A stretch of DNA of 64,000 nucleotides from a virus (Duplodnaviria > Caudoviricetes), in IMG/VR virus record IMGVR_UViG_3300023119_000004. The stretch is one strand, 5' to 3'. Positions within the stretch are counted from its first letter, which is position 1, and each line of letters begins with the position of its first letter. The notes beneath the pieces are model-generated. The model was not told the origin of the DNA. It saw only the letters and a list, made by a program, of their open reading frames with translations, and ran no database searches. Shown piece by piece: positions 6,920-64,000 of this stretch. Made by a program: the position numbers and the translations under genes.

Positions 6920-6927
6920 TTGTTCTC

Positions 6928-47678: not shown

Positions 47679-47710
47679 AAGATAAATAGTAACATAGGGG
47701 TTAAAAAGAA

Positions 47711-49198
47711 ATGGCATATACTATTGATAGATACAACGGCACTACACTAACAGTAGTCCAAGACGGAACTGTAGACCAGACTACGGACATTAAACTTGTC
47801 GGTAAAAACTACGCTGGATACGGTGAAATTCAAAACGAGAATTTTTTACATTTATTAGAAAACTTTAGCGGAGCAAACCAACCTCCCAAAGCCATTTCAG
47901 GACAGGTTTGGTATGATTCTTCTTCAAGTAAATTAAAATTTTACGATGGTTCTAAGTTTAGAACAACAGGTGGTGCAGAAGTTAGTGCTACAGCCCCAGC
48001 AGGTTTAGCGACTGGAGACCTTTGGTGGGATTCAGCAAACGAGCAATTATATGCTTACAGCGGAACAGGTTATGTGCTAATTGGTCCACAAGGTGCAGGT
48101 ACTACAGTTACACAGATGGTATCAGCATCAGTTAGAGATACAACAAACACAAACAGAGTGATTATTAAAGCCGTTGTCAACGATGAAGTAATTTACATCA
48201 TTAGTGGAGCAACATTTACTATTGACTCAACAGATCCGCAAAACGCAATTACAGGATTTGACGTAGTTAAAAAAGGCTTAACATTAAGAAACACACAAAA
48301 CGCAACAGGCGGTGTTACAAGTACTACTGATTACTATTGGGGTACAGCAAGTAACTCATTAAAACTTGGCGGTTATACCGCATCAGACTTTGCACTAGCA
48401 GGATCAGGATCATTTACATCACTTGTTAGTTTTGCAGATGCAGGTATTTCAATTGGTGATTCAAACGATCTTAAGATTTTTATTGAAAATGACAACGAAG
48501 GTGTTATTAAAAATGACGTAGGACGTAAAATTCACGTTAGAGTTGATAATGCACAGGGTGTTGAGCAATCAGTATTTACAGTTGAAGATACAGGTGTAAT
48601 GCCAGGTGCAAATAACACATACGATTTTGGTACAAACGTTGCTAGATTTGCAACGATGTATGCAACAACATTTGACGGTGAAGCAACTTCCGCACAAACA
48701 ATGAAAGTTGGTGCTAACTATCGTTATCCAGATACTGCGTCAACATTTAATACTGTTGCTGTTAGAGATGGTGCAGGTAACTTACTTGCAAACGAATTTA
48801 CAGGTGTTGCTTCAAGTGCAAAATACGCTGACTTAGCAGAGAAATATACTACAGGAACAGATCTTCCGGTAGGTACTATTGTTGCTGTATGTGATGGAAT
48901 TGAAGATGTTGAAGGTGCTGAAGTAGAACCAGCAGAAGCAGGATCAATTCCAGTAGGAGTTGTTTCAGATGCACCAGCATACTTAATGAACAGCGAAGCA
49001 GAAGGTCAAGCAATTGGTCTTAAAGGTCGTGTTCCAGTAAGAGTAAAAGGGTTAATTAACAAAGGCGAAGCAGTTTACGTTGATATGGATGGTGTAGGTC
49101 ATTCGGTCAAAGGTGAATATATAGTGGGCGTTGCTTTAGAAACTTTCGAACCAGAAGGTGACGAAGAAGGCCTAGTAGAATGTATATTGAAGGTATAA
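47711..49198 (+). CDS. tail fibre, paralogue 3, with C-terminal intramolecular chaperone (peptidase G2-like) domain
   Basis: Same N-terminal module. C-terminal ADLAEKY..GTIV..GVVS..AYLMN..GRVPVRVKG. Confidence 0.7.
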   Translation: MAYTIDRYNGTTLTVVQDGTVDQTTDIKLVGKNYAGYGEIQNENFLHLLENFSGANQPPKAISGQVWYDSSSSKLKFYDGSKFRTTGGAEVSATAPAGLATGDLWWDSANEQLYAYSGTGYVLIGPQGAGTTVTQMVSASVRDTTNTNRVIIKAVVNDEVIYIISGATFTIDSTDPQNAITGFDVVKKGLTLRNTQNATGGVTSTTDYYWGTASNSLKLGGYTASDFALAGSGSFTSLVSFADAGISIGDSNDLKIFIENDNEGVIKNDVGRKIHVRVDNAQGVEQSVFTVEDTGVMPGANNTYDFGTNVARFATMYATTFDGEATSAQTMKVGANYRYPDTASTFNTVAVRDGAGNLLANEFTGVASSAKYADLAEKYTTGTDLPVGTIVAVCDGIEDVEGAEVEPAEAGSIPVGVVSDAPAYLMNSEAEGQAIGLKGRVPVRVKGLINKGEAVYVDMDGVGHSVKGEYIVGVALETFEPEGDEEGLVECILKV

Positions 49199-49204
49199 AG
49201 TAAA

Positions 49205-49597
49205 ATGGCAATCACAAGAAACATAAACCCAAATAGACCGCAAAGAGGCAAAAGGTCTGTAAAACTAACAGGAGAAGCGTCTCCGCAAGAAATACCTCTA
49301 ACTGCTGGCACGGTGACATTGATTGCCAACGGCTCAGGAACAACCTTTACACTGGCTAATGGTCAAGAAGGACAGATGATGACCTTTGTGGCAAGTTCAG
49401 ATGGTGCTGGCAACATAAACGATATTAGAGTAAACTGTAGAGCAAGATACGCATTTGACAGCGGCGGCACAAGAATCACAGGGTCAAGTAGCACAGCAGA
49501 ATGGGCACCATTCACGGCTTCACAAGAACATTCAATGGCCTGGGCAGTATTCACAGATGGCGAATGGTGTTGGAGTCAAGGTACTAACGAGGAATAA
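49205..49597 (+). CDS. 130-aa hypothetical (fibre tip-like) protein
   Basis: Beta-rich TFTLANGQEGQMMTF...WAVFTDGEW, located in the fibre cluster. Confidence 0.55.
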   Translation: MAITRNINPNRPQRGKRSVKLTGEASPQEIPLTAGTVTLIANGSGTTFTLANGQEGQMMTFVASSDGAGNINDIRVNCRARYAFDSGGTRITGSSSTAEWAPFTASQEHSMAWAVFTDGEWCWSQGTNEE

Positions 49598-49607
49598 GGA
49601 ATAGACA

Positions 49608-50498
49608 ATGGCAGTCGGTGATATTATTACAGCCGCAAGGTATAACAACTTGCAATCTCGTGTAGCAACAGTAATGGGAGTAGGCTCCGGTGATGACGGA
49701 TATGGTCAAAACCTAGCAAGTTCTCAGGTAGCAACTAACGCTATTGTGTTAGCAACAGATATGCAAACACTTTATACTGACTTAGCAAACGCCAGAATTC
49801 ACCAAACAGGTACACAGCCTACAGAAATTGCTTTTATTAATCAATCAGACATTATTCTTGATAGTGATACTATTAACAAAAAAGGTGTTGTACAGTTTGA
49901 AAACTTAACTACTTCAGCAGAAAATGACAAATTTGTTATTGCTGGTTCACAAGCAAGTGCAGAACCAGGAGTACAAGCACAGTACACACAAAACTGGAAT
50001 GGTACTTTATCTCATATTTTTGATGTAGTATTTGCAGATGCAGATCATCGTAGACAGTATTTCAATGCAGGTGGCGAAATTAGACTTGCGTCTAATATTA
50101 CATATACAGGAACTAGTGCTAAAACTATTGACTGGATGACAATGTTGGTAAACATTGGTACAGTTAAATTTAACTACACGTCAACACTTCCAACAGGAAC
50201 TGGTACTGGTAGTGCAATTGGTTTCCATGATCTTACAACAGGTCCACAACAAGTGTTTATTAAAAACGGTAGCGGAAACTATGCCGCAAACAACTATAAA
50301 ATCGAAGCACAACTAAATGGTACTACTAGTGTTAGATTTACAGTAACGTTTAACGATGATAACACAGGTAACCCAAATACAGACGAAAACGTTTTGGGTA
50401 CACTTAACAGCACAATTACTCAATTAAGAGCAACTGGTAATGCTGTTGAAGTCCAATCACCTACATATACTAACGAACCAAGTTCAAATCTAACTTAA
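49608..50498 (+). CDS. virion structural protein
   Basis: Thr/Gly/Asn-rich (GDIITAARYN; RRQYFNAGGEIR). Last gene of the fibre cluster. Confidence 0.55.
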   Translation: MAVGDIITAARYNNLQSRVATVMGVGSGDDGYGQNLASSQVATNAIVLATDMQTLYTDLANARIHQTGTQPTEIAFINQSDIILDSDTINKKGVVQFENLTTSAENDKFVIAGSQASAEPGVQAQYTQNWNGTLSHIFDVVFADADHRRQYFNAGGEIRLASNITYTGTSAKTIDWMTMLVNIGTVKFNYTSTLPTGTGTGSAIGFHDLTTGPQQVFIKNGSGNYAANNYKIEAQLNGTTSVRFTVTFNDDNTGNPNTDENVLGTLNSTITQLRATGNAVEVQSPTYTNEPSSNLT

Positions 50499-50501
50499 TC
50501 C

Positions 50502-50530
50502 TTGCATTTTAGATCTAAATAGTGTATAAT
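50502..50530 (+). promoter_or_regulatory. composite promoter: sigma70 TTGCAT-N17-TATAAT with an embedded late TAAATA
   Basis: -35 at 50502-50507, -10 at 50525-50530, TAAATA at 50516-50521. AAGGAG SD follows. Confidence 0.7.
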
Positions 50531-50547
50531 ACACTAAAGGAGATCTT

Positions 50548-50898
50548 ATGGACGAACGATTAGAAAAAGCATTAGACTTTGCCAATTATATGACTACCCT
50601 AAATAACCAAAAAAGAGTAGCAAAAGAAAAGTTCTATGAAACAAACGTCTATTATTTTAATGGTGGACAATTTAGTGTAACAAAAGAACTACTAAACTTT
50701 TGTAATATGTTGGTACAGTCGGGTCAAGAAAACGTTGTGTTAATTGACGATAATGATATTCCTGTACGTATTGAAAAAATTGATGACTTTTATAGCGAAG
50801 CATTAGACATTTATTTTACAGCAACTAACGAATATCACACAGAATACGAAAAAATTAGAACTAACAGGAAAGTATCTGGACTTGTAGAGTATGAGTAA
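50548..50898 (+). CDS. 116-aa hypothetical protein
   Basis: Strong SD. First gene of the modification cluster, overlapping the next gene. Confidence 0.7.
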   Translation: MDERLEKALDFANYMTTLNNQKRVAKEKFYETNVYYFNGGQFSVTKELLNFCNMLVQSGQENVVLIDDNDIPVRIEKIDDFYSEALDIYFTATNEYHTEYEKIRTNRKVSGLVEYE

Positions 50899-51736
50899 AG
50901 GAGCATTAATTTTTGCTAGAAACAATGCTCAAATAGATTACATCAAACAAGCACACTTTTTAGCAAAACGTATTAAAATATATTTAGGTATACCTACAAG
51001 TATTGTTACAGACAGTATTGAATACTTGCATTCGGCGTATCCTGATTACCAAGAAGTGTGGGATAAAGTAATTGAAGTGCCTTTTCAACAAGGTATTAGT
51101 AACAAAAGATATTATGACGGAAGTAATGTCTTTAAAAACTTAGAATTTAAAAACGACCTAAGAACACAAGCATACGATCTAACACCATATGACGAAACAT
51201 TAATGTTGGATAGCGATTATATTATTGCTAACGATTTATTTAAAGAGTGTTTTACATCAGACCACAATTTTCAAATATACAAAGATGCAAAAGATTTGTC
51301 AGGTTTTAGAGAAGTAGCAGAATTTAAAAATATTAGCGAAACAAGTGTTGACTTTTATTGGGCAACAGTAGTTTATTTTAAAAAGTGCAAAGAAGTAGAA
51401 ACATATTTTAACTTAACAAAGCATATTCAAGAAAATTGGCAACACTATAACAGTATATTTCAAATTAATAAAGGAACATTTCGCAACGATTGGGTGTTTA
51501 GTATTGCTATTCATATTATGAATGGTTATCAACATGGAGACTTTGCAACACCTCTGCCAGGAACAAAGTATTTTACTACTGATAGAGATATTCTATGGGA
51601 ACTTGATAAAGAAAACTTTTTGTTCTTAATCGAAAAGAAAGACCATTTAGGAGAATATACGCCTTTAAGGATTAAAGGTAGTAATGTACACGTTATGAAC
51701 AAGTTTAGTTTAACAAGGATTATTGATAATGAGTAA
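50891..51736 (+). CDS. GT-A fold glycosyltransferase-like protein
   Basis: TPYDETLMLDSDY (DxD), FRNDWVFSIA and VHVMNK. Confidence 0.65.
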   Translation: MSKGALIFARNNAQIDYIKQAHFLAKRIKIYLGIPTSIVTDSIEYLHSAYPDYQEVWDKVIEVPFQQGISNKRYYDGSNVFKNLEFKNDLRTQAYDLTPYDETLMLDSDYIIANDLFKECFTSDHNFQIYKDAKDLSGFREVAEFKNISETSVDFYWATVVYFKKCKEVETYFNLTKHIQENWQHYNSIFQINKGTFRNDWVFSIAIHIMNGYQHGDFATPLPGTKYFTTDRDILWELDKENFLFLIEKKDHLGEYTPLRIKGSNVHVMNKFSLTRIIDNE

Positions 51737-52565
51737 AGGATTTGTATTCATTGCACAAAACAGTGAAGACGATTATGTAAAACAGGCTTGTTTGTTAGCA
51801 ATGAGTTTACACGCTACACAAAAAGATCCTAAAATTTGCCTAATTACCAATGACGAAGTTCCTGAAAAATATGTATCACTGTTTGATTGTATAAAAGAAA
51901 TCCCCTGGGAAGATAGTGCAATAGAAGCAGAGTGGAAAGTACAGAATAGATGGAAAATTTATCATGCTAGTCCGTATGATGAAACTATTGTAATGGACAC
52001 AGACATGGTTGTATTGCAAGATTTAGAAAGTTGGTGGAACTTTTTAAGTAATTATGACCTATATTTTGTAAGCAAGGTGTTTACTTATAGAGGAGATGAA
52101 GTAGTAGATAACTATTATCGTAAAACTTTTATTGCTAACGAACTGCCAAACTTATATGCAGGGTTTCATTACTTTAAAAAGAGTGATTTTGCAAAAGAAT
52201 TTTATACTTGGTTAGAACTAGTTATGAATAACTGGGAACTATTTTATGGAAAATATGCTAAAGAACTATATCAGAAATCACTATCAGTAGATTTAAGTGC
52301 GGCTATTGTTGCAAAGATACTAGACTGTGAAGAAAAAATTACTAATAAGAAAGCAACCATACCAAGTTTTACACACATGAAGCCTAGAATACAAGGTTGG
52401 TACAATCCAAGTGCTACTTGGCAAAGTAGAGTTGGTAGTTATCTAACAGATGACCTTAAATTAAAAATAGGAAATCATGCTCAAACAGGCATTTTTCATT
52501 ATACTGAAAAAACGTTTGCATCAAAAGATAAGATTTCAAAGTATGAAGGAGTGTTAAAACTATGA
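51723..52565 (+). CDS. GT-A fold glycosyltransferase-like protein (paralogue)
   Basis: SPYDETIVMDTDM (DxD), PSFTHMKP and FHY. The N-terminus resembles the upstream gene. Confidence 0.65.
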   Translation: MIMSKGFVFIAQNSEDDYVKQACLLAMSLHATQKDPKICLITNDEVPEKYVSLFDCIKEIPWEDSAIEAEWKVQNRWKIYHASPYDETIVMDTDMVVLQDLESWWNFLSNYDLYFVSKVFTYRGDEVVDNYYRKTFIANELPNLYAGFHYFKKSDFAKEFYTWLELVMNNWELFYGKYAKELYQKSLSVDLSAAIVAKILDCEEKITNKKATIPSFTHMKPRIQGWYNPSATWQSRVGSYLTDDLKLKIGNHAQTGIFHYTEKTFASKDKISKYEGVLKL

Positions 52566-53155
52566 TTACAATGAGACCTCCTGTTGTTATTGATAAAAGA
52601 TATGCTATCTTTAATCCTACAAATGGTGACTTGATTAGTGTTACTAATTCACAACCAAAAGAAGGAAGTTATATTCCAGTAGAAGAAAAAGAGGTATCTA
52701 GTATTGTTAATGGTACAGAACCAATGTCATATTATTATGTACATTATAACAAAACTAAAAAAGAATACCAGTTAAGAACTAGGAACAACTTTGATATTGA
52801 TAGTTACTATGTTGATGATCTTATATATGAAGTAAAAGAAGAACAAATTAAAGACGCAGATATACGTATTACTAAAAATGTAAAAGATACGTGTTGGAAA
52901 TTTAGTATTGGCGGAGATTTAAAAGCAAACATACTTGCTCAAAAAGTAAGTTTTAAACAAATTATGTTTTTTTCAATTACAAAGAAAAACGATCCAAACA
53001 TTTTGTACAAAACAATCTCTTTTAACTTTGAAGATTTAGTTGACGGTAAGTACATTGTATTGCCATTTGATAGTAAATTTGAATTTGATAACGAACCAAT
53101 TGGCATTTATACAATTAAAAGATTTGACAAGTATATGTACGAGGTAATTAAATGA
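52562..53155 (+). CDS. 197-aa hypothetical protein
   Basis: ATGA overlaps at both ends. Confidence 0.65.
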   Translation: MITMRPPVVIDKRYAIFNPTNGDLISVTNSQPKEGSYIPVEEKEVSSIVNGTEPMSYYYVHYNKTKKEYQLRTRNNFDIDSYYVDDLIYEVKEEQIKDADIRITKNVKDTCWKFSIGGDLKANILAQKVSFKQIMFFSITKKNDPNILYKTISFNFEDLVDGKYIVLPFDSKFEFDNEPIGIYTIKRFDKYMYEVIK

Positions 53156-54039
53156 AGATTAACATTGCAGAGCAAGATATTATATTCTTAAGTTACGATG
53201 AACCTAACTGCGAAAAGAATTATGTTGATTTATGCAAAAAAATTCCTTGGGCAAAACGTGTTCACGGAGTACACGGTTCAGATGCCGCACATAAAGCCTG
53301 TGCAGATTTGTCAGAAACAAAACACTTTGTAACAGTTGACGGAGATACTATTGTAGATCCGGAATTTTTAAATGTAGTTTTAGATTTAGACGTAATGGGC
53401 GTTGATGATGATTATCAATTTAGTTGGTGTGGACACATCGATGTTAACGGATTAAAATACGGCAACGGCAGTTTAAAAATGTGGACTAAAGAATTCGTTA
53501 AAAATATGAAAACACATGAAAACACCGACGGCAATGATGATACAAATATTGAATTTTGTTATTTTGACAACTATTACCAATTAAACGAAAACTATAGCAC
53601 TAGTATTATTAGTTCAACACCGCATCAAGCATGGAGAGCAGGATTCCGTGAAGGTGTTAAGATGAGTTTAAACAGAGGTGCAAGAGTTTCTGATCTTAGC
53701 AAAGACATTTGGTGGCAAAATTACCAAAGATTGTTAATTTGGATGAACGTTGGTGCAGATGTTACTAACGGAATTTGGTCAGTGTACGGTGCAAGGCAAG
53801 GATGTCATCTAGCATATTGTACAGATTGGGACATTTCACAAACTAGAGACTTTAAAATCTTAAATGAGATGTGGGAAAAAGAAAAAGATAAGGATGCTTG
53901 GGCATTAGATGAATCAATGGAAGAACTAGGAGCAAAATTAGGAGAAGCAGGACTGCCGATTAGTCCAAAACCTTTCGATGCTGGACAAAGTAAAATGTTT
54001 AAAGCAGTTTATGAAAACACTCCTAGAGTTATTAGATGA
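53152..54039 (+). CDS. GT2-like glycosyltransferase
   Basis: FLSYDEPN..KRVHGVHG..AHKACA..FVTVDGD, and AWRAGFREGVKM. Confidence 0.55.
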   Translation: MKINIAEQDIIFLSYDEPNCEKNYVDLCKKIPWAKRVHGVHGSDAAHKACADLSETKHFVTVDGDTIVDPEFLNVVLDLDVMGVDDDYQFSWCGHIDVNGLKYGNGSLKMWTKEFVKNMKTHENTDGNDDTNIEFCYFDNYYQLNENYSTSIISSTPHQAWRAGFREGVKMSLNRGARVSDLSKDIWWQNYQRLLIWMNVGADVTNGIWSVYGARQGCHLAYCTDWDISQTRDFKILNEMWEKEKDKDAWALDESMEELGAKLGEAGLPISPKPFDAGQSKMFKAVYENTPRVIR

Positions 54040-55403
54040 GCGAACTAGATAAAATTAAAGAAATAATGCCGATAGTAGAAGAGGAAACATCTCCTACTTT
54101 TTGTTTAGCAAAGTGGCATCATACTACTATCTATTTACAAACAGGTGAAACACATAGTTGTTATCATCCTGCTCCGCACCCTATACCATTAGAAGAATTA
54201 AAAGATAATCCAAGTGCATTGCATAACACTAAAGAGAAAAAAGAACAACGTAAGCAGATGTTATGTGGACAAAAGCCAGAAGGTTGTAACTATTGCTGGA
54301 AGATCGAAGCAATGGGCAAAGACTTTGTTAGTGATAGACATATCAAAACTACGAGTATCTATAGACCCGAAAGAATTACGGAAATAAAACAAAAAGGGGC
54401 GGATTTTAACATAAATCCGGAGTATATTGAGATTAACTTTAGTAATGAGTGTAATTTTAAATGCGGTTATTGCCATCCTAAGTTTAGCAGTAGATACTAT
54501 AATGAGATTAAAGAACACGGACCATATAAAATGTCAACAGCACATAGGCAAGACATTGACTGGTTTGAGTTATATGACAATGAAGAATCAAACCCCTATG
54601 TGAAAGCATGGTGGGATTGGTGGCCGGAAGTCTCCAAGACTCTTAATATTTTGAGAATTACGGGAGGTGAGCCTTTAATGCACAAGAGTACTTGGAGACT
54701 TTTCGACGAGTTGGAAGCAGATCCTAAGCCACATATTCAAATCGAAGTAAACAGCAATATGGGTGTTAAAACTAAACTAGTAGAAAAACTTGTAGAACGT
54801 ATTAACACACTAAAAGAAAAGAATTGTATTAAAAGTTTTAAACTTTATACAAGTATAGATACTTGGGGCGAACGTGCAGAATATACACGTACTGGTTTAG
54901 ATATTGAACTATGGGAAAAGAACTTAGATTACTATCTAACTAATACAAACTTTCCTGTAACATTTATGATTACATTTAATTTATTTGCTGTTACAAGTTT
55001 TAGTTTGCTATTATCAAAGATTTTAGAATGGCGTGTAAAATATAATAATGAAAATGCAACACAATGGCAACGTATTAGATTTGATACTCCACATTTAAAA
55101 GAACCTACAATCTTTGACATGAATATTTTACCTAAAGAAAAGTTTATGCCATATATGCAAGACCATTTAGATTTAATAGAGCGTTTTAAAGATGATAATG
55201 ACAACACAAAGTTTAGTAGTTTAGAATATGAAAAGTTTAGACGTGTTGTAGACTATATGGCAACTACTAATTATGAACCTGAAAAACTAGAACAAGCACG
55301 TAGAGATTTCTCACGTTGGTTTACAGAATACGATCGTAGACGCGGAACTAATCTTGTTAGTGTATTTCCAGAATTAGAGCAATTTTATAATGAGTACAAG
55401 TAA
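54036..55403 (+). CDS. radical SAM protein with N-terminal twitch (Fe-S) domain
   Basis: N-terminal CLAKW..SCYH..CNYC, then CNFKCGYC (CxxxCxxC) and ITGGEP. Confidence 0.85.
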   Translation: MSELDKIKEIMPIVEEETSPTFCLAKWHHTTIYLQTGETHSCYHPAPHPIPLEELKDNPSALHNTKEKKEQRKQMLCGQKPEGCNYCWKIEAMGKDFVSDRHIKTTSIYRPERITEIKQKGADFNINPEYIEINFSNECNFKCGYCHPKFSSRYYNEIKEHGPYKMSTAHRQDIDWFELYDNEESNPYVKAWWDWWPEVSKTLNILRITGGEPLMHKSTWRLFDELEADPKPHIQIEVNSNMGVKTKLVEKLVERINTLKEKNCIKSFKLYTSIDTWGERAEYTRTGLDIELWEKNLDYYLTNTNFPVTFMITFNLFAVTSFSLLLSKILEWRVKYNNENATQWQRIRFDTPHLKEPTIFDMNILPKEKFMPYMQDHLDLIERFKDDNDNTKFSSLEYEKFRRVVDYMATTNYEPEKLEQARRDFSRWFTEYDRRRGTNLVSVFPELEQFYNEYK

Positions 55404-56568
55404 AGATACATTTTGTATATTACCCTGGAGCCATATGTATGTCAATCCAGATGGCAATGTGTTACCTTGTTGTATTGGTAAGTGGGACAAACCTTTAGGA
55501 AATACTAAACATAATACTATTAAAGAAATTTGGAATAGCGAAGCATACAAAAAGTTACGTCTTGCATTACTAAATGGTGAACAACCAAACGAATGTTCGC
55601 AATGCTGGGCACATGAAGCAAGTGATGTTTGGAGTTTTAGAAAAGAAAATAATAAAAAGTTTTCTAAGCATTTAGGTGTGCGTGAACTAACTAATCAAGA
55701 CGGCAGTTTAGACGTAATGAAATTACTTTACTTTGATGTACGCTGGAGTAATATTTGTAATTTTAAATGTAGAACGTGTAGTGCAACATACAGTTCAAGT
55801 TGGGCAATAGAAGATAATGCGAACGGAAAGAACGTTCCTGTATATACATTTGCAGGAGGAGATTCTAATGACAGTTTGTTTGAACAGTTTAAGCCATATT
55901 TAAAAGATATTGAAGATTTTTATTTTGCAGGTGGCGAACCGTTAGTAACAGATAAGCATTACGAAATTTTAGATTATTTAATTGCTGAAAATAAAACAGA
56001 TGCAATATTACAATACAATACTAATTTAAGTAACCTAACTTATAAAGGTAAACTTGTAACAGATTACTGGAAACAATTTAAAAAAGTACAAGTAAGAGCA
56101 AGTTTAGATCATTATGGTTCTAAAGCAGAATACATTAGAGAAGGAACTGACTGGAATAAGATTATTGAGAATCTTAATTTTATTAAAAAAGAATGTCCTC
56201 ACGTAATTATGAGTTTTAATGCAGTAGTAAGTGCATTTAATATTGTTACACTTGTAGACTTTTTAGAATATATGACAGATAATGGATTTGACGTAAACAG
56301 TTGTACTTTATATAATCTTGTTGATCCTGTACATTATAGTGTTTCAGCAGTACCAACAGAAAAACTACAACACGCAAAACAACGTTTAGAAGAATATTAC
56401 AATAAAATAACTAATAGAGAACACAAAGAAACTATTAATAGTGTGTTAAAGTATATTAGCAATGTAGAATATAATCCAGACCATAATGCTATATGGGCAA
56501 ACAAAAATTCTTACTACGATCAAATACGTAAAAGAAGTTTTGCTGAAACTTTTCCTGAATTATTATAA
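55390..56568 (+). CDS. radical SAM protein with N-terminal twitch/SPASM domain
   Basis: CILPW..GNVLPCC..CSQC, then CNFKCRTC and FAGGEP. Confidence 0.85.
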   Translation: MSTSKDTFCILPWSHMYVNPDGNVLPCCIGKWDKPLGNTKHNTIKEIWNSEAYKKLRLALLNGEQPNECSQCWAHEASDVWSFRKENNKKFSKHLGVRELTNQDGSLDVMKLLYFDVRWSNICNFKCRTCSATYSSSWAIEDNANGKNVPVYTFAGGDSNDSLFEQFKPYLKDIEDFYFAGGEPLVTDKHYEILDYLIAENKTDAILQYNTNLSNLTYKGKLVTDYWKQFKKVQVRASLDHYGSKAEYIREGTDWNKIIENLNFIKKECPHVIMSFNAVVSAFNIVTLVDFLEYMTDNGFDVNSCTLYNLVDPVHYSVSAVPTEKLQHAKQRLEEYYNKITNREHKETINSVLKYISNVEYNPDHNAIWANKNSYYDQIRKRSFAETFPELL

Positions 56569-57438
56569 ATGCAAGATTGGTTCTAATTGATCTGATTGAC
56601 GCAATCTAAGTTCATAGTTACAACTATCAACAAATCTTTGTCCTGAACTGTAAATATGAAACTTTGGAACACCTTTACTTGCACCGTTCATCATTGTAAC
56701 CCACTTTTTAAAACTTTCGGCTACTGCGGCATCGGTTTCGTCACGCCAGTTATGTTTAAAAACTGCTTTGAGATAATTGTAATATTCAACTATATGAGGA
56801 TGACCGTCTTGAAAATCTTTGTTTACAGTTTTTCTATCTTGTTTAAATTTCTTTTGAATATCGTTGTTCCAAAGAACTTCGTAAAAACTAGGCTGTATAG
56901 TTTCAAGAACTGGTCTGTAGATGTCTGCTAGTTTTTTAATTTTATCATGATGTTGTGTGCGTCTGTTTAAGTTCCATTGATCGGTGTAGTCAACAATTTT
57001 CATCATTTGCAAGAAATGAAATTGTGTTTTATGTTTTAGATGTTCGTTTGCCGCATAGATGAATGCAAAATCTCTAACGTAAGCACCATACTCACTAAAC
57101 CAAGTTTGCACCCACTTTTCGTCATACTCGCCTTGTGTGTAAATGTTACCCGGCACAAGCCAACCGTCACGTTGAGGAAGATATCTATCCTCTCTACAAA
57201 CATTAGTCCATTGTACAATAACTAGGTCTTCGTGTGTAAAATTATATACAGCATCTGCCTGCATTAGCGAATTAAAAATATAATGATTACCTGCACCCGA
57301 ACGACCAAAGTTTCTAAACTCAGCCTCAGGAAATTCTGCTCCGATAACATTTGCCCAAGTACCCCAAATATATGAAGTAAAACTACAACCAAATGTAAAG
57401 ATTCTTTTTGGTTTATTATGAATTAATTGTTTTGCCAT
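56563..57438 (-). CDS. SGNH/GDSL-like esterase or acyltransferase
   Basis: FTFGCSFT, FGRSGAGN and C-terminal DGHP. Confidence 0.55.
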   Translation of the reverse strand: MAKQLIHNKPKRIFTFGCSFTSYIWGTWANVIGAEFPEAEFRNFGRSGAGNHYIFNSLMQADAVYNFTHEDLVIVQWTNVCREDRYLPQRDGWLVPGNIYTQGEYDEKWVQTWFSEYGAYVRDFAFIYAANEHLKHKTQFHFLQMMKIVDYTDQWNLNRRTQHHDKIKKLADIYRPVLETIQPSFYEVLWNNDIQKKFKQDRKTVNKDFQDGHPHIVEYYNYLKAVFKHNWRDETDAAVAESFKKWVTMMNGASKGVPKFHIYSSGQRFVDSCNYELRLRQSDQLEPILHL

Positions 57439-58684
57439 CTGCTGTATCTCTCATGTATTTACACAAATCAAAAAATTGTGCTCTTGTATGTTTACCTGCT
57501 AACATTGTTTTAAAATTATTTAACAGTTTATCACTTTCTGCATATTTCCATTTGACTTGTTCTTCCCAAGTCATATTTCTTAATTGAAGGACTACTCTTT
57601 CTAGTTCTGCATAAATCTTTTTCCAGCGTTTATAATCGTCTGGTTCGTCATCAAAACTATAATCAAAGCAGTCAAAAAGTTGATAGCCGTACTCTTGCAA
57701 CTTTTTGTTTGCACCTTGTTGCCCCCAAATAATAAATGGTTGCATATGAAACATTGATCTAAATGTTTTTTCACTCCAAAACTGACTAGTACCTTGCCAG
57801 TTTTCAGCAAACGTTTCGTTAACTATTTGAAATAACGTTTGATCGTGTAAGTGTGTATTAAGGAACATAGCATGGTTTGTAATAAAATCTTCTGTGTCTG
57901 CAACTAAAGGTAATACAGTTTTATTCCAGCGTCTTAAGTGTTTAGGTTCAATACCGTGGTCGCCTGGAATTTGACTAACATAACCATCCCAACTAAAATA
58001 TTTAGAATTAAAGTTTCCGTGACTTATAAGGCCGTCAAACAAGTAGTCACCGTGAAATATCTCCCAAGCAGACAATGTTCTATGTGGTCTATTAACTCTA
58101 CTTAAACTTAAGAATAGTTTATTCTTAAATTTTGACTTGGTTCCTTTTTTACTTGCTTTTAATCTTTTGTTTGCTTGTTCATTAATATCACCGTGTTGGT
58201 CCACAATAAGATTTGCACCTTGCACACCAAACAACATAGATTCAAAATTGTTAAAGCACATTAGTTTAATGCTTCTAGTAATTCCGTGTTCTTGATTGTA
58301 TCTTTTTAAATTATCATGATCTAGCATATTACTAGAAATATAAATTACTCTTTCGGGATCAACACCGTGTTCTTTACAATTAAAATACAGTACATCAAAA
58401 AATGGTTGATCGTAAATTGTGCTAAAGCCCTCGGTACTTGCATCAAAGATAAAAAATGTTTTCTTATCCTTTTTCAGTTGACGTAGATGAGATAAACGCA
58501 TTTGTCTAAAAATTGGTGCAGTTTTTGGCCATCTAGGATATTTAATCAATCCTTGATAAATGGTAATGTCCTTGTGTACAATACCACTTTTGTTAAATTC
58601 TTCTTTTAAAAACTCATAGGTTAGAGTGTTTTGCGGACACGATAAAAAATCGTTATGTTGAAAAAAGCCAATGATGCGATTCAT
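57416..58684 (-). CDS. glycosyltransferase-like protein (GT-B/GT10-like C-terminus)
   Basis: FLSLSRVNRPHR and IVNETF..FWSEKTF..QPFIIWG. Start reassigned from TTG 58699 to ATG 58684. Confidence 0.45.
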   Translation of the reverse strand: MNRIIGFFQHNDFLSCPQNTLTYEFLKEEFNKSGIVHKDITIYQGLIKYPRWPKTAPIFRQMRLSHLRQLKKDKKTFFIFDASTEGFSTIYDQPFFDVLYFNCKEHGVDPERVIYISSNMLDHDNLKRYNQEHGITRSIKLMCFNNFESMLFGVQGANLIVDQHGDINEQANKRLKASKKGTKSKFKNKLFLSLSRVNRPHRTLSAWEIFHGDYLFDGLISHGNFNSKYFSWDGYVSQIPGDHGIEPKHLRRWNKTVLPLVADTEDFITNHAMFLNTHLHDQTLFQIVNETFAENWQGTSQFWSEKTFRSMFHMQPFIIWGQQGANKKLQEYGYQLFDCFDYSFDDEPDDYKRWKKIYAELERVVLQLRNMTWEEQVKWKYAESDKLLNNFKTMLAGKHTRAQFFDLCKYMRDTADGKTINS

Positions 58685-58699
58685 GTTTCTGGGTTCCAA

Positions 58700-58718
58700 T
58701 AAATACTATGTATTTATA
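58700..58718. promoter_or_regulatory. face-to-face pair of late promoters
   Basis: TAAATA (+) at 58700-58705 and an exact TATAAATA (-) at 58711-58718. Confidence 0.65.
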
Positions 58719-58744
58719 TGCGTACTTAATTAACGGAGAATAGT

Positions 58745-59917
58745 GTGAATATTGGATTTATTGGTTTGGGTAAATTAGGTTTACCTTGTGCAGAAGTTAT
58801 TGCAGAAAAAGGACACAATGTCAGCGGTTACGACATAGTTGATGTTAAGAGCGATTTAGTTTCAGTAAAAGAAACTATTAAAGAAGCAGTACATGATAGA
58901 GATATTGTTTTTATTGCAGTACCTACACCCCATCATCCAGACTATGACGGTAAGCAACCGACAGCACATTTAGAACCAAAAGATTTTTCGTATGATATTG
59001 TAATTGATGTAGTACGCGAAGCAAACAGACATATGAATAACAGTCAATTACTTGTGCTTATTAGCACAGTTCTTCCTGGTACAGTACGTAGAGAATTTGT
59101 ACAGCATATTACTAATCCAAGATTTGTTTATAATCCATACTTAATTGCAATGGGTACAGTTGCTTGGGATATGGTAAATCCTGAAATGGTTATGATTGGA
59201 ACCGAAGACGGATCTAAGACAGGCGATGCAAAAGAACTTATTGATTTTTATAAAACAATAATGGAAAACAAACCAAGATACGAAGTTGGTACTTGGGACG
59301 AATGTGAATGTATTAAAGTTTTTTACAACACATTTATTAGTACTAAAATTGGATTCGTTAATATGATTCAAGATGTTGCAGAACGTCAAGGTAATATTGA
59401 TGTTGATGTAGTTACTGAAGCATTATCAAAAAGTACACAACGTATAATGGGTCCAAAATATATGAAAGCAGGTATGGGCGATGGCGGTGCTTGTCACCCA
59501 AGAGATAACATTGCTCTACGTTTTATGGCACAACAATTAGACTTGCAATATGACCTATTTGATGCTATAATGAATGCACGTGAAGTACAAGCAAAAAATA
59601 TGGCAAAGTATTTGGTAAAACTTGCTTCTGCAAATGACTTGCCAATTTTGTTAAATGGAATTGCGTATAAGCCTGATGTTCCATACAAAGACGGAAGTTA
59701 TAGTTTGCTTGTAGGACACTACTGTAAAGAATTAGGATATCACTGTATTGAAGTCGATCCTTTAGCAAGTCCGCAAAAAGGTCCTTTTAGTGCAGTTGTT
59801 TTACTAGCACATCCTAAACTTTATTGTTTCCTCAACGACGATAGTATTGTTGTTGACCCGTGGAGAGAATTTAAGTCTGATACGCTTAAAGTGTATCATT
59901 ATGGTAATACAAGATGA
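58745..59917 (+). CDS. ugd: UDP-glucose/GDP-mannose 6-dehydrogenase family protein
   Basis: GLGKLG Rossmann motif, FIAVPTP, STVLPGT, YNP, KVFYNTFISTKI and catalytic GGACHPRD. Confidence 0.9.
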   Translation: MNIGFIGLGKLGLPCAEVIAEKGHNVSGYDIVDVKSDLVSVKETIKEAVHDRDIVFIAVPTPHHPDYDGKQPTAHLEPKDFSYDIVIDVVREANRHMNNSQLLVLISTVLPGTVRREFVQHITNPRFVYNPYLIAMGTVAWDMVNPEMVMIGTEDGSKTGDAKELIDFYKTIMENKPRYEVGTWDECECIKVFYNTFISTKIGFVNMIQDVAERQGNIDVDVVTEALSKSTQRIMGPKYMKAGMGDGGACHPRDNIALRFMAQQLDLQYDLFDAIMNAREVQAKNMAKYLVKLASANDLPILLNGIAYKPDVPYKDGSYSLLVGHYCKELGYHCIEVDPLASPQKGPFSAVVLLAHPKLYCFLNDDSIVVDPWREFKSDTLKVYHYGNTR

Positions 59918-60822
59918 AAAAAATTTTAATAGTTGGTGATAGCAATGCACTAGGTGAGTGGGGAACAATTATTCCTGGGCCGGGGTGTGCTAACAACAAC
60001 GATCCAGAAGTGTTTCGTCCTTGGAATAAAGAAAAATATTTAAGCGGTGATTTTCCTAAACCTTTTCAAGTTGTTTGGCCAGGCTTTGGTTATCATTTAG
60101 ATCAAATGGGTCATTGTACAGTTAACTATGCTTTTGGCGGAGCAGGAAATTTCGAAAGTATTTTTAAAGTTGAAGAAGCACTAGGATTAGCACCTTGCTT
60201 TACAAGTCCTGTTTTTTATAATCCTGATTTAATTATATGGATGCTAACAGAGCCTTGTAGAGATTTAAAAAGAAGTTTATGGCCAGATGAAGCAGGCTTG
60301 TATGATTTAGAGAAGTATCATAAACAAAGTGATCCGCTAGTAGCAGAAGCAAAGTCAATTAAAGAAATAAATGACGGCCTGCTTAAAATTGCACTAGACG
60401 GCGCACAAAAAATTTATGAAGAAACTAATATTCCATGGTTAGTAATTGAAGGCTGGGGAAAATTACCAGAAGATATTTCACAATACACTTTTATTAAACA
60501 CGTTCATCGCGGATGGATGGATAGTATTATAGAACGTCCGGTTCCGTTAATTAGTTCTTGGGGTACAGCAGAAAATGTACGTAGACGTAGACCCGACCTA
60601 ACAGAAAATGCGGCAGATGCATTACGTATGTTTGCTAGACAACGACCTGAACTAAACATTCCGGATATTCCAGAAGGTATAGAAACAGAATTTAGAAGCA
60701 TTGTTGAAGATTACGAAGTTGTTATTGACCTAATGAATAAAAGTGATAAGTTTCCAGATAACTGTCATGTTGATAGACATATACAAAAACAACTAGCAGA
60801 GGATATTGCAAAATATGTATGA
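59914..60822 (+). CDS. SGNH/GDSL-like hydrolase
   Basis: LIVGDSN, NYAFGGAGN and C-terminal DNCH. Confidence 0.55.
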   Translation: MKKILIVGDSNALGEWGTIIPGPGCANNNDPEVFRPWNKEKYLSGDFPKPFQVVWPGFGYHLDQMGHCTVNYAFGGAGNFESIFKVEEALGLAPCFTSPVFYNPDLIIWMLTEPCRDLKRSLWPDEAGLYDLEKYHKQSDPLVAEAKSIKEINDGLLKIALDGAQKIYEETNIPWLVIEGWGKLPEDISQYTFIKHVHRGWMDSIIERPVPLISSWGTAENVRRRRPDLTENAADALRMFARQRPELNIPDIPEGIETEFRSIVEDYEVVIDLMNKSDKFPDNCHVDRHIQKQLAEDIAKYV

Positions 60823-61498
60823 TATAGTTTTTATAAGTTGGCAAGAACCCAATGCAGATGAAGTATATGCAAAGTTAAAAGAAAAGTTTCCTATGGCTAA
60901 ACGTGTTCATGGTGTAAAAGGAATTCATAATGCACATATTGCCGCGGCAAAAAAATGTTTTACAAAAATGTTTTGGGTGGTAGACGGTGATGCTATTATT
61001 AAAGATGACTTTGATTTTAGTTACGAAGTTGACGAGTACAATGTAGATACAGTTCACGTATGGCGTTGTGAAAATCCTGTAAATGATTTAGTTTATGGGT
61101 ATGGCGGAGTAAAGTTATTACCTCGGTCATTAACACTAAAAATGAATACTGAGACAGTTGATATGACAACAAGTATTAGTGATAACTTTAAAGCAATGGA
61201 TCAAGTTAGCAATATTACTGCTTTTAATACAGATCCTTTTAATACTTGGAAAAGTGCATTTAGAGAATGTGTAAAATTGTCTAGTAAAATCATTGATAGA
61301 GAAGAAGATGAAGAAACTTTATTTAGACTTACTGACTGGTGTCAAAAAGGCATGGACAGACCATTCGGAAACTATTGTATCGATGGTGCTCGCCGTGGTA
61401 GTGACTTTGGTCTTGCTCACCGTAATGAGCCTGAGTCTTTAAAACTTATAAACGATTGGGATTGGTTGCATGAGCAATTTTCAAAAAATTCCATTTGA
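60806..61498 (+). CDS. GT2-like glycosyltransferase (paralogue of 53152..54039)
   Basis: FISWQEPN..KRVHGVKG..AHIAAA..WVVDGD, and TWKSAFRECVKL. The true start may be the second Met (about 60815). Confidence 0.55.
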   Translation: MQNMYDIVFISWQEPNADEVYAKLKEKFPMAKRVHGVKGIHNAHIAAAKKCFTKMFWVVDGDAIIKDDFDFSYEVDEYNVDTVHVWRCENPVNDLVYGYGGVKLLPRSLTLKMNTETVDMTTSISDNFKAMDQVSNITAFNTDPFNTWKSAFRECVKLSSKIIDREEDEETLFRLTDWCQKGMDRPFGNYCIDGARRGSDFGLAHRNEPESLKLINDWDWLHEQFSKNSI

Positions 61499-62450
61499 CA
61501 AGATTACACGCTTTGGTCAAAAAACAATGCTTGACGAAGGCGTGTTTTCTGTTAGTTGGATACTAGGAAGATTTTGTAATTACAAATGTAGTTACTGCTG
61601 GCCTTATGCTAATACAGACAAACCAGATCACTTTAGTTTGCAGACATATAAACATACAATAGATGAAATTAAACGCCAAGCAAATGATAACGGATTTAGC
61701 AAATTTCATTTTAGTTTTAGTGGTGGTGAACCAACAGCATACAAACACCTACTTGAACTAATTCAATACTATGAAGATTTTAAAAGTCCATATTTAAGTA
61801 TTCACATGACAACTAATCTATCTCCTAACAAGTCATGGTGGATGCGTTGGTTAGATAAAACCTTTGTTATGGATAGAAGAAGTTTAACAGCAAGTTATCA
61901 TGCAGAGTTTGCTGACGAAAAAGAATTTGGTGATAAGTGTTTAATGCTTATGGAAAATAATACACTTGTAACAGTTAATCAAGTTATGGTTCCAGAACAC
62001 TTTAACGAATATTACGATAGATGTGCAAGATTAAATGAAAGGGGAATTCATGTCACACTCAAGCCGCAATCAGATCCTACTGCGTCATTTGTGGTCTCTG
62101 GTTATACAGATGATCAACTGGAAAAATTACAAACAGGATTCCCGCAAGAAATCGACGGAGAAGAAGTCGCACAAGTTCGCCTCGAAACAAATGATGGAAT
62201 AAAATACGAAATAGATCAAGCAGAACGGTTTAATGCTTTTGGATTTAATAAGTTTAAAGGGTGGAACTGTAATGCAGGATATCAAAGTTGTATTATACGT
62301 GGTAATGAAGTTAAGAGGGCATATAGTTGTAGTGACGAACCATTAGGTACACTTACACACGGTTTTACGCTGTTTAAGACACCATCTAAATGCGTTACTG
62401 ATACTTGTGTTAGTAGTGCAGATAACAAAATACCAAAGGTAAAACTATGA
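61470..62450 (+). CDS. radical SAM protein with C-terminal twitch-like cysteines
   Basis: CNYKCSYC, FSGGEP, and C-terminal CNAG..SC..C..C. Confidence 0.85.
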   Translation: MSNFQKIPFDKITRFGQKTMLDEGVFSVSWILGRFCNYKCSYCWPYANTDKPDHFSLQTYKHTIDEIKRQANDNGFSKFHFSFSGGEPTAYKHLLELIQYYEDFKSPYLSIHMTTNLSPNKSWWMRWLDKTFVMDRRSLTASYHAEFADEKEFGDKCLMLMENNTLVTVNQVMVPEHFNEYYDRCARLNERGIHVTLKPQSDPTASFVVSGYTDDQLEKLQTGFPQEIDGEEVAQVRLETNDGIKYEIDQAERFNAFGFNKFKGWNCNAGYQSCIIRGNEVKRAYSCSDEPLGTLTHGFTLFKTPSKCVTDTCVSSADNKIPKVKL

Positions 62451-62761
62451 AGAAGTTATGGGAACGCCTCAAGGCGCATGATAAAAAAGTAAAAGAAGCA
62501 CAAGCAAATTTTAAAGTTTCTGATATAAAGAACAAATACGTTAGAGCATTTATGTGGATATTCATGCTTAAATTTGTATGGGATATTACTACATTATTTG
62601 AAAAATATTTTCCTATGAAAAAAGTATATAAGGTATTAGGTTTAGGTTGGACAAAGTTAGGCTATTATGTGTTTTGGTTATTATGGTTTATATTTGTAGT
62701 TGTATCATTGTATTACATATTAGGCGAAGAATTATTTGATCAACTGGTAAATGAATTATGA
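62447..62761 (+). CDS. small membrane protein
   Basis: Two aromatic-rich hydrophobic segments. ATGA overlaps at both ends. Confidence 0.6.
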   Translation: MKKLWERLKAHDKKVKEAQANFKVSDIKNKYVRAFMWIFMLKFVWDITTLFEKYFPMKKVYKVLGLGWTKLGYYVFWLLWFIFVVVSLYYILGEELFDQLVNEL

Positions 62762-63360
62762 AAATTGAATTAGATGATATTATGTTTTGGATGGACGCTA
62801 TACGCAATAGCGAAGACAAGTATCGCACACTTGAAAGTTTTTGGAAAGGACAGTTGCGTAGTAAACGTTGGTTAATAGAACAACTAGAACAATCAGCATT
62901 GCCTAGCAAAAATAGAATTGTAATACACGGAGGGTGGAACGGTGTGTTAGCAAGTATGATATTCAATAGCGATATTAATGTTGAACATATTACTTCGGTA
63001 GATATAGATTCAGAGTGCGAACAAATTGCTAGTACAATGAACAAACGTCAAGAGATGGAAGGACGTTTTAAATCAGTTACAGCAGATATGTGTGATTATA
63101 AGTATGAAGCAGATATTGTCATTAATACAAGTTGCGAACATATTACACAAGAACAGTACGAGCAATGGTTAAGCAATGTTCCACAAAATGCTACTATAGT
63201 TTTACAAAGTAATGACTATGATGAGTTAGATGAGCATATTAACTGTTCAAAGGATTTAATGAACTTTTCAGATAAATCTAAAATAAAAGTTTTTACTGGT
63301 GCAACACTTAGGCTCGATAAGTATAATAGATTTATGATTATAGGTAAGAAACGTGTATAA
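62758..63360 (+). CDS. class I SAM-dependent methyltransferase
   Basis: IHGGWNG (motif I variant), SVDID, ADMCD and INTSCEH. Confidence 0.7.
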   Translation: MKIELDDIMFWMDAIRNSEDKYRTLESFWKGQLRSKRWLIEQLEQSALPSKNRIVIHGGWNGVLASMIFNSDINVEHITSVDIDSECEQIASTMNKRQEMEGRFKSVTADMCDYKYEADIVINTSCEHITQEQYEQWLSNVPQNATIVLQSNDYDELDEHINCSKDLMNFSDKSKIKVFTGATLRLDKYNRFMIIGKKRV

Positions 63361-64000
63361 TATAGAAGACATTAGAGCGATACATTTAGAAGTAACGTCA
63401 AAGTGCCAAGCCTCTTGTCCTATGTGTGCTAGAAATTTACAAGGCGGTCCGTTAAATCCTTTCCTTAAACTAAACGAAGTTGATCTAGGAACATTTGTAA
63501 ATTGGATTCCAAGAAACATTGTACGTCAACTAGATCGTTTGTATATGTGTGGTAATTTCGGCGATCCTATTATTGCAAATGACACACTTGAAATATTTCA
63601 ATATTTACGTGAAACAAATCCATCGATTAGTTTAAGCATGAATACAAACGGTAGTGCTAGGAATACAGAATGGTTTAAAGATCTTGCTAATTTAAATGTG
63701 CGTGTTCGTTTTGGTATTGATGGATTAGAAGATACACACAGTAAATATCGTATTGGTACAGACTGGAATAAAATTATAGAAAATGCAAAATCATTTATCA
63801 ATGCTGGCGGATATGCTATTTGGGATATGTTAATTTTTAGTCATAATGCACATCAAAAAGAAGCGTGTAAAGAATTAGCAGATACTATTGGCTTCAAAGA
63901 GTTTTACAGTAAAAACACAAGTAGATTTAGAGATGACGTATTACCTGTATTAGATAAAACAGGAAAACAAGTTGATACACTTTACCCAACAGAAAAGAGT
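63353..64000 (+). CDS. radical SAM protein (partial, runs off the window; absent from the ORF track)
   Basis: GTG at 63353 gives MYNIEDIRAIHLEVTSKCQASCPMCARN (CxxxCxxC), then MCGNFGDP and TNG. Open to the window end. Confidence 0.85.
   Translation, partial: MYNIEDIRAIHLEVTSKCQASCPMCARNLQGGPLNPFLKLNEVDLGTFVNWIPRNIVRQLDRLYMCGNFGDPIIANDTLEIFQYLRETNPSISLSMNTNGSARNTEWFKDLANLNVRVRFGIDGLEDTHSKYRIGTDWNKIIENAKSFINAGGYAIWDMLIFSHNAHQKEACKELADTIGFKEFYSKNTSRFRDDVLPVLDKTGKQVDTLYPTEKS

Follow-up and report, generated by a model that had tools for sequence, protein, structure and literature searches.

A fibre-linked gene island of an uncultured T4-like phage as a candidate glycan-building and glycan-tailoring pathway rich in radical SAM enzymes

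What does a T4-like phage make with a long run of sugar enzymes and radical S-adenosylmethionine (SAM) enzymes encoded directly behind its tail-fibre genes? The question is raised by a 64,000-nucleotide stretch of DNA, hereafter referred to as the window, which represents the minus strand of positions 33589-97588 in a 184,930-bp IMG/VR virus record (IMGVR_UViG_3300023119_000004; G000; completeness ~51% according to CheckV) of an uncultured T4-like phage from a salt marsh. An initial annotation of the sequence had suggested that the genes at 50548-64000 constitute an uncharacterised pathway for tailoring glycans of the virion or the cell surface. We report that these genes belong to an island that very probably encodes a glycan-building and glycan-tailoring pathway. 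Our best explanation for its target, which we hold tentatively and at somewhat less than an even chance, is that the glycan would be synthesised in the cytoplasm, probably late, tailored by radical chemistry and placed on the fibre or receptor-binding proteins of the phage itself.

The gene run behind the fibres is real and well beyond chance. The initial annotation counted at least 16 tightly overlapping genes after the fibre genes, and we find 16 open reading frames (ORFs) between 50548 and 64000; neighbouring ORFs overlap by 4-29 nt at 14 of the 15 junctions and the sole gap is a 45-nt divergent spacer (58700-58744). The full island measures ~32 kb. The window thus covers its first, fibre-proximal 13.5 kb (under half), and ~19 kb more follow downstream.

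Five of the 16 products are glycosyltransferase (GT)-like according to motifs, profiles and fold models (four or five had been proposed), with weaker support for E and L than for the others. Two are GT8/glycogenin-like (B, C), two GT2-like (E, L) and one has a GT-B fold (I):

50891..51736, + strand: B281, GT8/glycogenin-like GT-A glycosyltransferase (profile, fold model)
51723..52565, + strand: C280, GT8-like, paralog of B281 (alignment with B, phrog_1903)
53152..54039, + strand: E295, candidate GT2-like GT-A glycosyltransferase (motifs, Atlas neighbours, fused homologs)
57416..58699, - strand: I427, GT-B fold glycosyltransferase (AlphaFold2, AF2, model); translation probably starts at Met6 (58684)
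60806..61498, + strand: L230, GT2-like, paralog of the N-terminal 220 aa of E295 (alignment, VDGD motif)

The paralogs B281 and C280 could be aligned and have in common an invariant DxD (D107-x-D109 in B) and a C-terminal His (H267). Compared with the PDB, their profile detected glycogenin at an expectation value (E) of 2.6e-6, and the AF2 model of B281 (predicted local distance difference test score, pLDDT, 74) retrieved glycogenin, LARGE1 and GlyE using Foldseek with a probability of 1.00 and template-modelling (TM) scores of only 0.4-0.5. Neither protein gave any glycosyltransferase match in Pfam, even at E <= 10, and since the PF01501 threshold was not reached we refer to them as GT8-like and not as family members. 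E295 carries the motifs DIIFLSYDEPN and VDGD, the latter in common with L230; its Atlas neighbours bear GT2-like names (TM 0.93), and fused E+L homologs of ~510 aa have a precomputed Pfam GT2 (PF00535) match, where both halves of one such fusion align to E. The E/L family has >7,900 database members; its profile found nothing in the PDB, and profile-profile comparison revealed no link between E/L and B/C. For I427, the AF2 model (pLDDT 73) gave tied VIA Z scores of 10-11 to T4 DNA beta-glucosyltransferase (BGT), H. pylori alpha-1,3-fucosyltransferase, TarM and GtfC. The protein carries a FWSEKxFR motif that resembles the GT10 E-K motif, and related viral clusters include fusions with GDP-mannose-dehydratase-type epimerases; a PDB profile search with I427 returned nothing.

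A nucleotide-sugar enzyme accompanies these proteins:

58745..59917, + strand: J390, nucleoside diphosphate (NDP)-sugar 6-dehydrogenase, UDP-glucose/GDP-mannose dehydrogenase family (Pfam, motifs)

Two of the three UDPG_MGDP_dh domains scored above cut-off in J390 (PF03721, N-terminal, E 3e-19, 69.6 bits; PF00984, central, E 4e-19, 68.9 bits), and the protein matches phrog_9148 at E 1.7e-98. Both a GLGKLG motif and an intact catalytic-Cys motif, GGACHPRD with Cys250, are present. The C-terminal UDP-binding domain is weak and TIGR03026 stays below its cut-off (168 bits vs 189.8), and therefore the sequence does not fix the nucleotide sugar; the UDP-sugar dehydrogenase of the initial annotation is retained here under the wider name NDP-sugar dehydrogenase. 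Around the closest homologs of J390, in phages Bellamy and HTVC008M, there are GT, carbamoyltransferase and NadE-like genes. Together, the five GT-like proteins, the dehydrogenase and the sugar enzymes added in relatives (see below) make a glycan pathway well supported.

The radical SAM enzymes, four as first annotated, were all identified by Pfam Radical_SAM and all have the CxxxCxxC motif:

54036..55403, + strand: F455, radical SAM enzyme with N-terminal twitch domain (NF033640, 322 bits; CxxxCxxC at residue 139)
55390..56568, + strand: G392, radical SAM enzyme with N-terminal twitch domain (NF033640, 371 bits)
61470..62450, + strand: M326, radical SAM enzyme without N-terminal twitch domain (Pfam Radical_SAM, E 4e-12; CxxxCxxC at residue 36)
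63353..64000, + strand: P, radical SAM enzyme with C-terminal SPASM domain (first 216 codons of the 328-aa ORF L001:17251-18237(-); Radical_SAM and SPASM detected on the full ORF)

F and G fall well within NF033640 (N_Twi_rSAM, "twitch domain-containing radical SAM protein"; curated cut-off 170 bits), a family that is defined computationally only. In both, a Cys-rich auxiliary domain precedes the CxxxCxxC core and its Cys residues are conserved in the family alignment; in G392, Pfam places SPASM at residues 9-73 followed by Radical_SAM at residues 120-274. Three further paralogs beyond the window, with 423, 228 and 218 bits (214-225 bits in a second scoring), also exceed the cut-off and have the N-terminal Cys-rich domain. 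G392 has >4,400 homologs, mostly on viral contigs. A scan of species genomes for cellular members of the N-twitch clade gave no relative, and a literature search on NF033640 found no characterised member or substrate. In the Vibrio phage K566 (L029; 160-169 kb), four N-twitch-like radical SAM genes are located among hypothetical genes near a PagP-like gene, with no recognisable fibre gene adjoining; hence, the radical SAM family also travels apart from the fibre-linked core.

How firmly, then, is the island tied to the fibres? The genes that flank it are:

43828..49198, + strand: three tail-fibre genes, 680, 602 and 495 aa (PHROG tail-fibre and tail-protein matches)
49608..50498, + strand: x296, fibre-associated protein, just upstream of the cassette in relatives
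L030:4352-5719(+), ~18.9-20.2 kb past the window end, opposite strand: m455, 455-aa Mtd_N-type receptor-binding gene (Mtd_N, E 1.2e-10)

The three fibres have an N-terminal domain of ~90 aa in common, whereas m455, which closes the island and has its own late-type motif, carries the N-terminal domain of Mtd, the major tropism determinant of Bordetella phage. Since receptor-binding genes stand at both ends, the island lies inside the fibre module. Between the third fibre gene (fib3) and x296 there is a 130-aa ORF, x130 (49203-49607). Contigs of two metatranscriptome runs lack 403 nt here, which corresponds almost exactly to this ORF; the small gene may be absent from some population variants.

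Genes A-Q are colinear, with 50-85% protein identity, in ~20 contigs (IMG/VR, ENA, NCBI) and follow directly after fib3/x296 wherever the contig reaches; one of the relatives, G001 (268 kb, 75% complete), has the entire island from fib3 to the Mtd_N gene m455 in the same order. Orthologs of x296 (60-72% identical) are present upstream of gene A in 11 contigs, and distant copies were found in L032 and in the C-terminal part of RsoM2USA ORF355. More distant lineages keep x296-A-B-C-(D)-E-L-F-G-H-I-J, with H and I in most of them. Further sugar enzymes are encoded there, namely a KdsA-like synthase, phosphomannomutase, DegT-type aminotransferase and B12 radical SAM enzyme; these accessory genes differ between lineages, as do the oxygenases. 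Scattered, unlinked genes in relatives would have spoken against a common pathway, and synteny had been proposed as a check; the genes proved closely syntenic and linked to fibre genes, in marine phages as well as in one soil phage.

Among 50,697 cultured-phage records the core was present only in the 344-kb Ralstonia jumbo phage RsoM2USA, and no other cultured phage gave a DNA-level or close protein-level match to the island (a DNA-level search of the cultured phages gave no match at all, and neither did a search with a structural protein). ORF354-ORF347 of RsoM2USA correspond to A, B, C, a D-sized gene, E, F, L and O with 34-45% identity (A116 35% to ORF354, C280 36% to ORF352, E295 43% to ORF350, F455 37% to ORF349, L230 45% to ORF348 and O200 34% to ORF347). 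They are positioned directly after ORF355, the N-terminus of which matches the fibre N-terminal domain and the C-terminus x296. The RsoM2USA paper labels ORF347-355 all as hypothetical.

One relative, L003 (GCA_002705285.1, PAHU01000005.1, 154.6 kb), is filed as a "Euryarchaeota archaeon" metagenome-assembled genome and has fib3 (66%), x296 (60%) and the whole set of A-Q orthologs. A cellular origin was rejected for L003 and for a 371-kb contig, both of which are phage. L003 is almost certainly a mis-binned phage contig, and names such as "hypothetical protein [Euryarchaeota archaeon]" mislead.

The promoter-like motifs, scored as consensus matches only, argue for expression together with the virion genes. 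Overall, the motif [ACT]TAAATA is rarer than expected (68 occurrences vs ~182 expected), and it lies 25-45 nt upstream of the baseplate and fibre genes. The same motif precedes the island units, in agreement with the initial annotation:

50515..50521, + strand: late-type motif CTAAATA, 27 nt upstream of gene A
58699-58705, + strand: divergent late-type motif ATAAATA, ahead of J
58718 down to 58711 (motif position 58717), - strand: divergent late-type motif TATAAATA, ahead of I

No sigma70-like site was found in the two intergenic gaps (before A and in the I/J spacer). Given that the structural-gene motif heads the island units and that these gaps have no sigma70-like site, the island is probably transcribed late, together with the virion genes. 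Moreover, in four salt-marsh metatranscriptome runs there are contigs over the fibres and the island with 95-100% identity, mostly at least 99%. Their depth is uneven (6-41 over the fibres vs 0.3-7 over the island), and contigs from three runs end at 50545-50554 and from three runs at 58728-58736. Neither the uneven depth nor the contig ends are expected from flat DNA carry-over.

The remaining genes in the window are small, weakly assigned or without family:

50548..50898, + strand: A116, small conserved protein, always the first cassette gene (orthologs 37-90% identical)
52562..53155, + strand: D197, conserved protein (orthologs 56-71% identical)
56563..57438, - strand: H291, conserved protein with SGNH-like motifs FGCSF, SGAGN and DGH (motifs only)
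59914..60822, + strand: K302, SGNH/GDSL-like by motif (GDSN, GGAGN, DNCH)
62447..62761, + strand: N104, small protein with a C-terminal hydrophobic segment (Kyte-Doolittle, residues 68-97)
62758..63360, + strand: O200, class I methyltransferase-like (motifs VIHGGWNG, DID and NTSCEH)

For this group the initial annotation holds in part. The two SGNH-like proteins, H291 and K302, stand at the level of motifs, and one K ortholog matches Lipase_GDSL at E 0.021; there was no PDB profile match and no Pfam support for the window proteins themselves, and profile-profile comparison detected no relationship between H and K. K302 has just 30 homologs, none with annotation. O200, the proposed methyltransferase, has the class I motifs; its Methyltransf_25 match (E 0.003) is below cut-off and a PDB profile search returned nothing. 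The proposed membrane protein corresponds to N104, which has one clear hydrophobic segment and with its 104 aa is not polytopic. A116 matched no family, and D197 had neither a PDB nor a Pfam match.

The near absence of membrane proteins bears on where the glycan would be used. A hydropathy scan of the 44 island ORFs revealed no polytopic membrane protein, N104 alone having a clear hydrophobic segment, and no Pfam family of an initiating phosphoglycosyl transferase, flippase/ABC exporter, polymerase or ligase was matched in the island. The island thus does not encode a surface-polysaccharide pathway that uses a lipid carrier, and its enzymes would meet the acceptor in the cytoplasm. Remodelling of the host envelope is therefore to be considered in a form where the lipopolysaccharide (LPS) core, the O-chain or another surface glycan is modified at the cytoplasmic face and exported by host transporters, blocking superinfection or altering grazing or recognition. 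GT8 includes LPS core transferases, the cassette of one relative has a KdsA-like gene, and the AspH-family oxygenases encoded past the window belong to a family that includes LpxO and KdoO. The GT8, UDP-glucose dehydrogenase (UGDH) and rfaE genes of host recognition clusters have been taken as host-surface modification (PMC7029224), and cyanophage GT clusters have been read likewise (PMC12801897). However, the island has none of the dedicated surface-glycan machinery, motifs of the kind preceding structural genes leave little time for surface remodelling in a lytic cycle, and the strict position behind a fibre-associated gene, across marine-bacterial and Ralstonia phages, is left unexplained. 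We consider envelope remodelling unlikely.

A cytoplasmic acceptor could also be the phage genome itself, with the tailored glycan put on a modified base as a shield against restriction. Besides BGT, I427 matches T4 alpha-glucosyltransferase (AGT) and the DNA glycosyltransferase of phage HY126 at Z ~10-11, and phage SP-15, the DNA of which carries glucuronate, also encodes a UGDH homolog. Against this, four of the five GT-like proteins are of the GT-A type whereas the characterised phage DNA glycosyltransferases considered here are GT-B; the promoter motifs are late-type and not early (the T4 DNA glucosyltransferases are early genes), and the island is embedded in the fibre module. The initial annotation had seen no nucleotide kinase, thymidylate-synthase-like or hydroxylase gene, and this agrees with our searches: the island has no nucleotide-metabolism gene (neither a deoxynucleoside monophosphate kinase nor a dCTPase), no ThyA-like protein (PF00303) was detected in G000, G001 and G003, which are 45-75% complete, and no Tet_JBP protein (PF12851) in G000, in a search run without a positive control. 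DNA as the acceptor is in our view very unlikely.

The part of the island beyond the window raises a further alternative. It encodes six more radical SAM enzymes (three of them N-twitch), six AspH-family 2-oxoglutarate oxygenases and a small kinase-like ORF. A homolog of flavin-dependent Trp-halogenases (E 1.4e-73; L030:6957-8183(-)) is located next to a 222-aa AMP-binding fragment (L030:5764-6432(+)) and a 195-aa ORF (6404-6991(+)); the latter two may be the halves of one split adenylation enzyme. The product might thus be a soluble secondary metabolite or peptide: an aminoglycoside-like or glycosylated compound resembling ribosomally synthesised and post-translationally modified peptides, or a peptide or protein that is cross-linked, hydroxylated or halogenated. 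Aminoglycoside biosynthesis is a typical setting of twitch radical SAM enzymes, and the SPASM radical SAM enzymes, the six oxygenases, the halogenase homolog and the AMP-binding fragment would all suit such a product. In one cyanophage GT cluster, a radical SAM gene was taken to serve antibiotic synthesis (PMC12801897). On the other hand, no precursor peptide, nonribosomal peptide, polyketide or cyclitol synthase, exporter or immunity gene was noticed among the annotated ORFs, where no dedicated search was made, and the core common to distant phages consists of GTs and one or two N-twitch radical SAM enzymes and not of the oxygenase/halogenase part. The fibre linkage and the late motifs would also lack an explanation, and we give a soluble product little credence.

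Decoration of the adsorption apparatus of the phage, our preferred explanation, could proceed as follows. Late in infection J would make a uronic-acid nucleotide sugar from an NDP-hexose, and the retaining GT8-like, the GT2-like and the GT-B enzymes would add sugars stepwise to a cytoplasmic acceptor. The radical SAM enzymes would abstract hydrogen from sugar carbons, and thereby epimerise, oxidise, deoxygenate or C-alkylate them; among twitch enzymes, BtrN catalyses a dehydrogenation and HygY an epimerisation. O would methylate the glycan, and attachment or removal of O-acyl groups would fall to H and K. For the SPASM radical SAM enzymes, AspH-like oxygenases and halogenase of the distal part, either the glycan or protein side chains may be the substrate. 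The virion would then leave the cell with decorated fibres or receptor-binding proteins.

The acceptor is the least certain step of this explanation. Taken together, the lack of membrane machinery, the promoter motifs, the missing DNA-modification partners and the transcripts indirectly favour a cytoplasmic acceptor that the phage itself makes, and of such acceptors the fibre proteins fit the conserved gene position best. Several points weigh against them. Virion proteins, the host surface and DNA all come into question as the acceptor, and a mucin-like Ser/Thr acceptor tract in the fibres was rejected (S+T 15-21%, no enriched stretch). PA5oct-like phages have x296-like proteins without the cassette, on which ground a strict co-occurrence of the cassette with x296 as a fibre tip was also rejected. 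The Z scores of I427 are tied, so that T4 DNA beta-glucosyltransferase is as close as the protein and teichoic-acid glycosyltransferases. Synthesis of LPS cores also employs GT8 enzymes, and for soluble core glycosyltransferases the phage would not have to encode a flippase. With a record that is about half complete, missing genes prove little. The promoter motifs are consensus matches, and the RNA-library contigs may include DNA, prove no transcript starts and give no timing. Finally, we infer the substrates of the radical SAM enzymes by analogy, and peptide, not sugar, could be what the distal half, with its SPASM radical SAM enzymes, AspH-like oxygenases and halogenase, modifies.

A bolder possibility, which we regard as doubtful, is that the island as a whole is a factory for post-translational modification of the virion, in which the fibres are glycosylated and their sugars, perhaps also the protein, are then rewritten by the N-twitch radical SAM enzymes, the oxygenases and the halogenase. 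If so, the fibre surface would not be predictable from the gene sequence, the N-twitch proteins would be radical SAM enzymes of a new, carbohydrate-modifying class, and the host range of abundant marine and soil jumbo phages would depend on a further, hidden layer. Already with the fibres as the acceptor, predicting host range from the fibre sequence alone would miss a chemical layer.

As to the remainder of the window, its left half encodes a T4-type major head protein, portal, SbcCD-like nucleases, baseplate hub and wedge proteins and a 4,928-aa structural protein. The latter, a single ORF (28403-43189) ahead of the fibres, matches phrog_10938 ("virion structural protein"), has one stretch resembling the head closure protein Hc2 and is probably a VrlC-like giant protein of marine T4-like phages. 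Compared with the genome copy the window differs at ten positions, all transitions (12684, 34711, 35614, 36628, 36803, 36926, 37243, 41101, 52548 and 52828); six of these are within the 4,928-aa gene, and the differences may reflect two closely related variants or two versions of the record. On the far side, just past the island, L030:201-2726(+) encodes a pair of proteins, an AAA (MoxR-like) ATPase and a DUF2201 metallopeptidase/VWA-like protein.

Islands of this kind have been described, and the novelty implied by the initial annotation therefore does not extend to the type of island: the glycan-tailoring reading is kept, its status as undescribed is not. Host recognition clusters (HRCs) of pelagi- and cyanomyophages are large variable islands in the structural region (Zaragoza-Solas et al. 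2020, PMC7029224). They contain tail fibres, glycosyltransferases (GT8 being the commonest), UDP-glucose dehydrogenase and radical SAM cassettes, and were read as modifying the host O-chain (PMC7029224). Similarly, the present island is situated in the structural region, after the baseplate wedge, the 4,928-aa protein and three fibres, and ends at the Mtd_N-type gene; it has GT8-like proteins, a UDP-glucose/GDP-mannose-type dehydrogenase and radical SAM enzymes, and variable accessory genes surround a kept core, x296-A-B-C-E-L-F-G-J. Asp/Asn beta-hydroxylases are common in HRC phages, and AspH-like oxygenases are present here. In gene content and setting, the island is an instance of the HRC. 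As to position, HRCs are placed between VrlC and the neck gene gp14 (PMC7029224); here the 4,928-aa protein, probably VrlC-like, and the fibres precede the island, the DUF2201 and AAA genes follow downstream and no gp14 was recognised. Neither the A-B-C-D-E-F core nor the N-twitch family is defined in that report, and nor is the link to RsoM2USA.

In mycobacteriophages, as far as the work is cited elsewhere, soluble phage glycosyltransferases decorate the phage's own structural proteins (Freeman et al. 2023, as cited in PMC12619734 and PMC12801897). Phage-encoded soluble glycosyltransferases are common to those systems and to the present island. The mycobacteriophage systems reportedly comprise two or three glycosyltransferases and a methyltransferase acting on capsid and tail-tube C-termini, and are said to have no radical SAM enzyme, dehydrogenase or fibre linkage. 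The LPS-like or cell-wall-synthesis clusters of the large cyanomyoviruses P-SSM2, S-SCSM1 and S-SCSM2R combine many GTs with nucleotide-sugar enzymes, and that of S-SCSM2R includes KdsA/KdsB, with a single radical SAM "maturase" among its GT genes (PMC12801897); in contrast to the present island, neither fibre linkage nor arrays of N-twitch radical SAM enzymes are reported for them. DNA glycosylation systems (T4 AGT/BGT; 5-hydroxycytosine, 5hoC, arabinosylation, PMC13326640) resemble the island in the GT-B fold, seen in I427, and in a phage-encoded supply of nucleotide sugars, but differ in having GT-B enzymes only together with a ThyA homolog, nucleotide kinases and dCTPase, partner genes that were not found here.

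Compared with these systems, what is new here is the assignment of the core at the level of folds, the membership in the N-twitch family, the absent export machinery, the late-type motifs and the cultured counterpart in RsoM2USA. Uncultured marine T4-like phages and jumbo phages commonly carry fibre-linked islands of GT and radical SAM genes. The compact core of the cultured RsoM2USA, ORF347-355, provides a handle for telling the three candidate targets apart.

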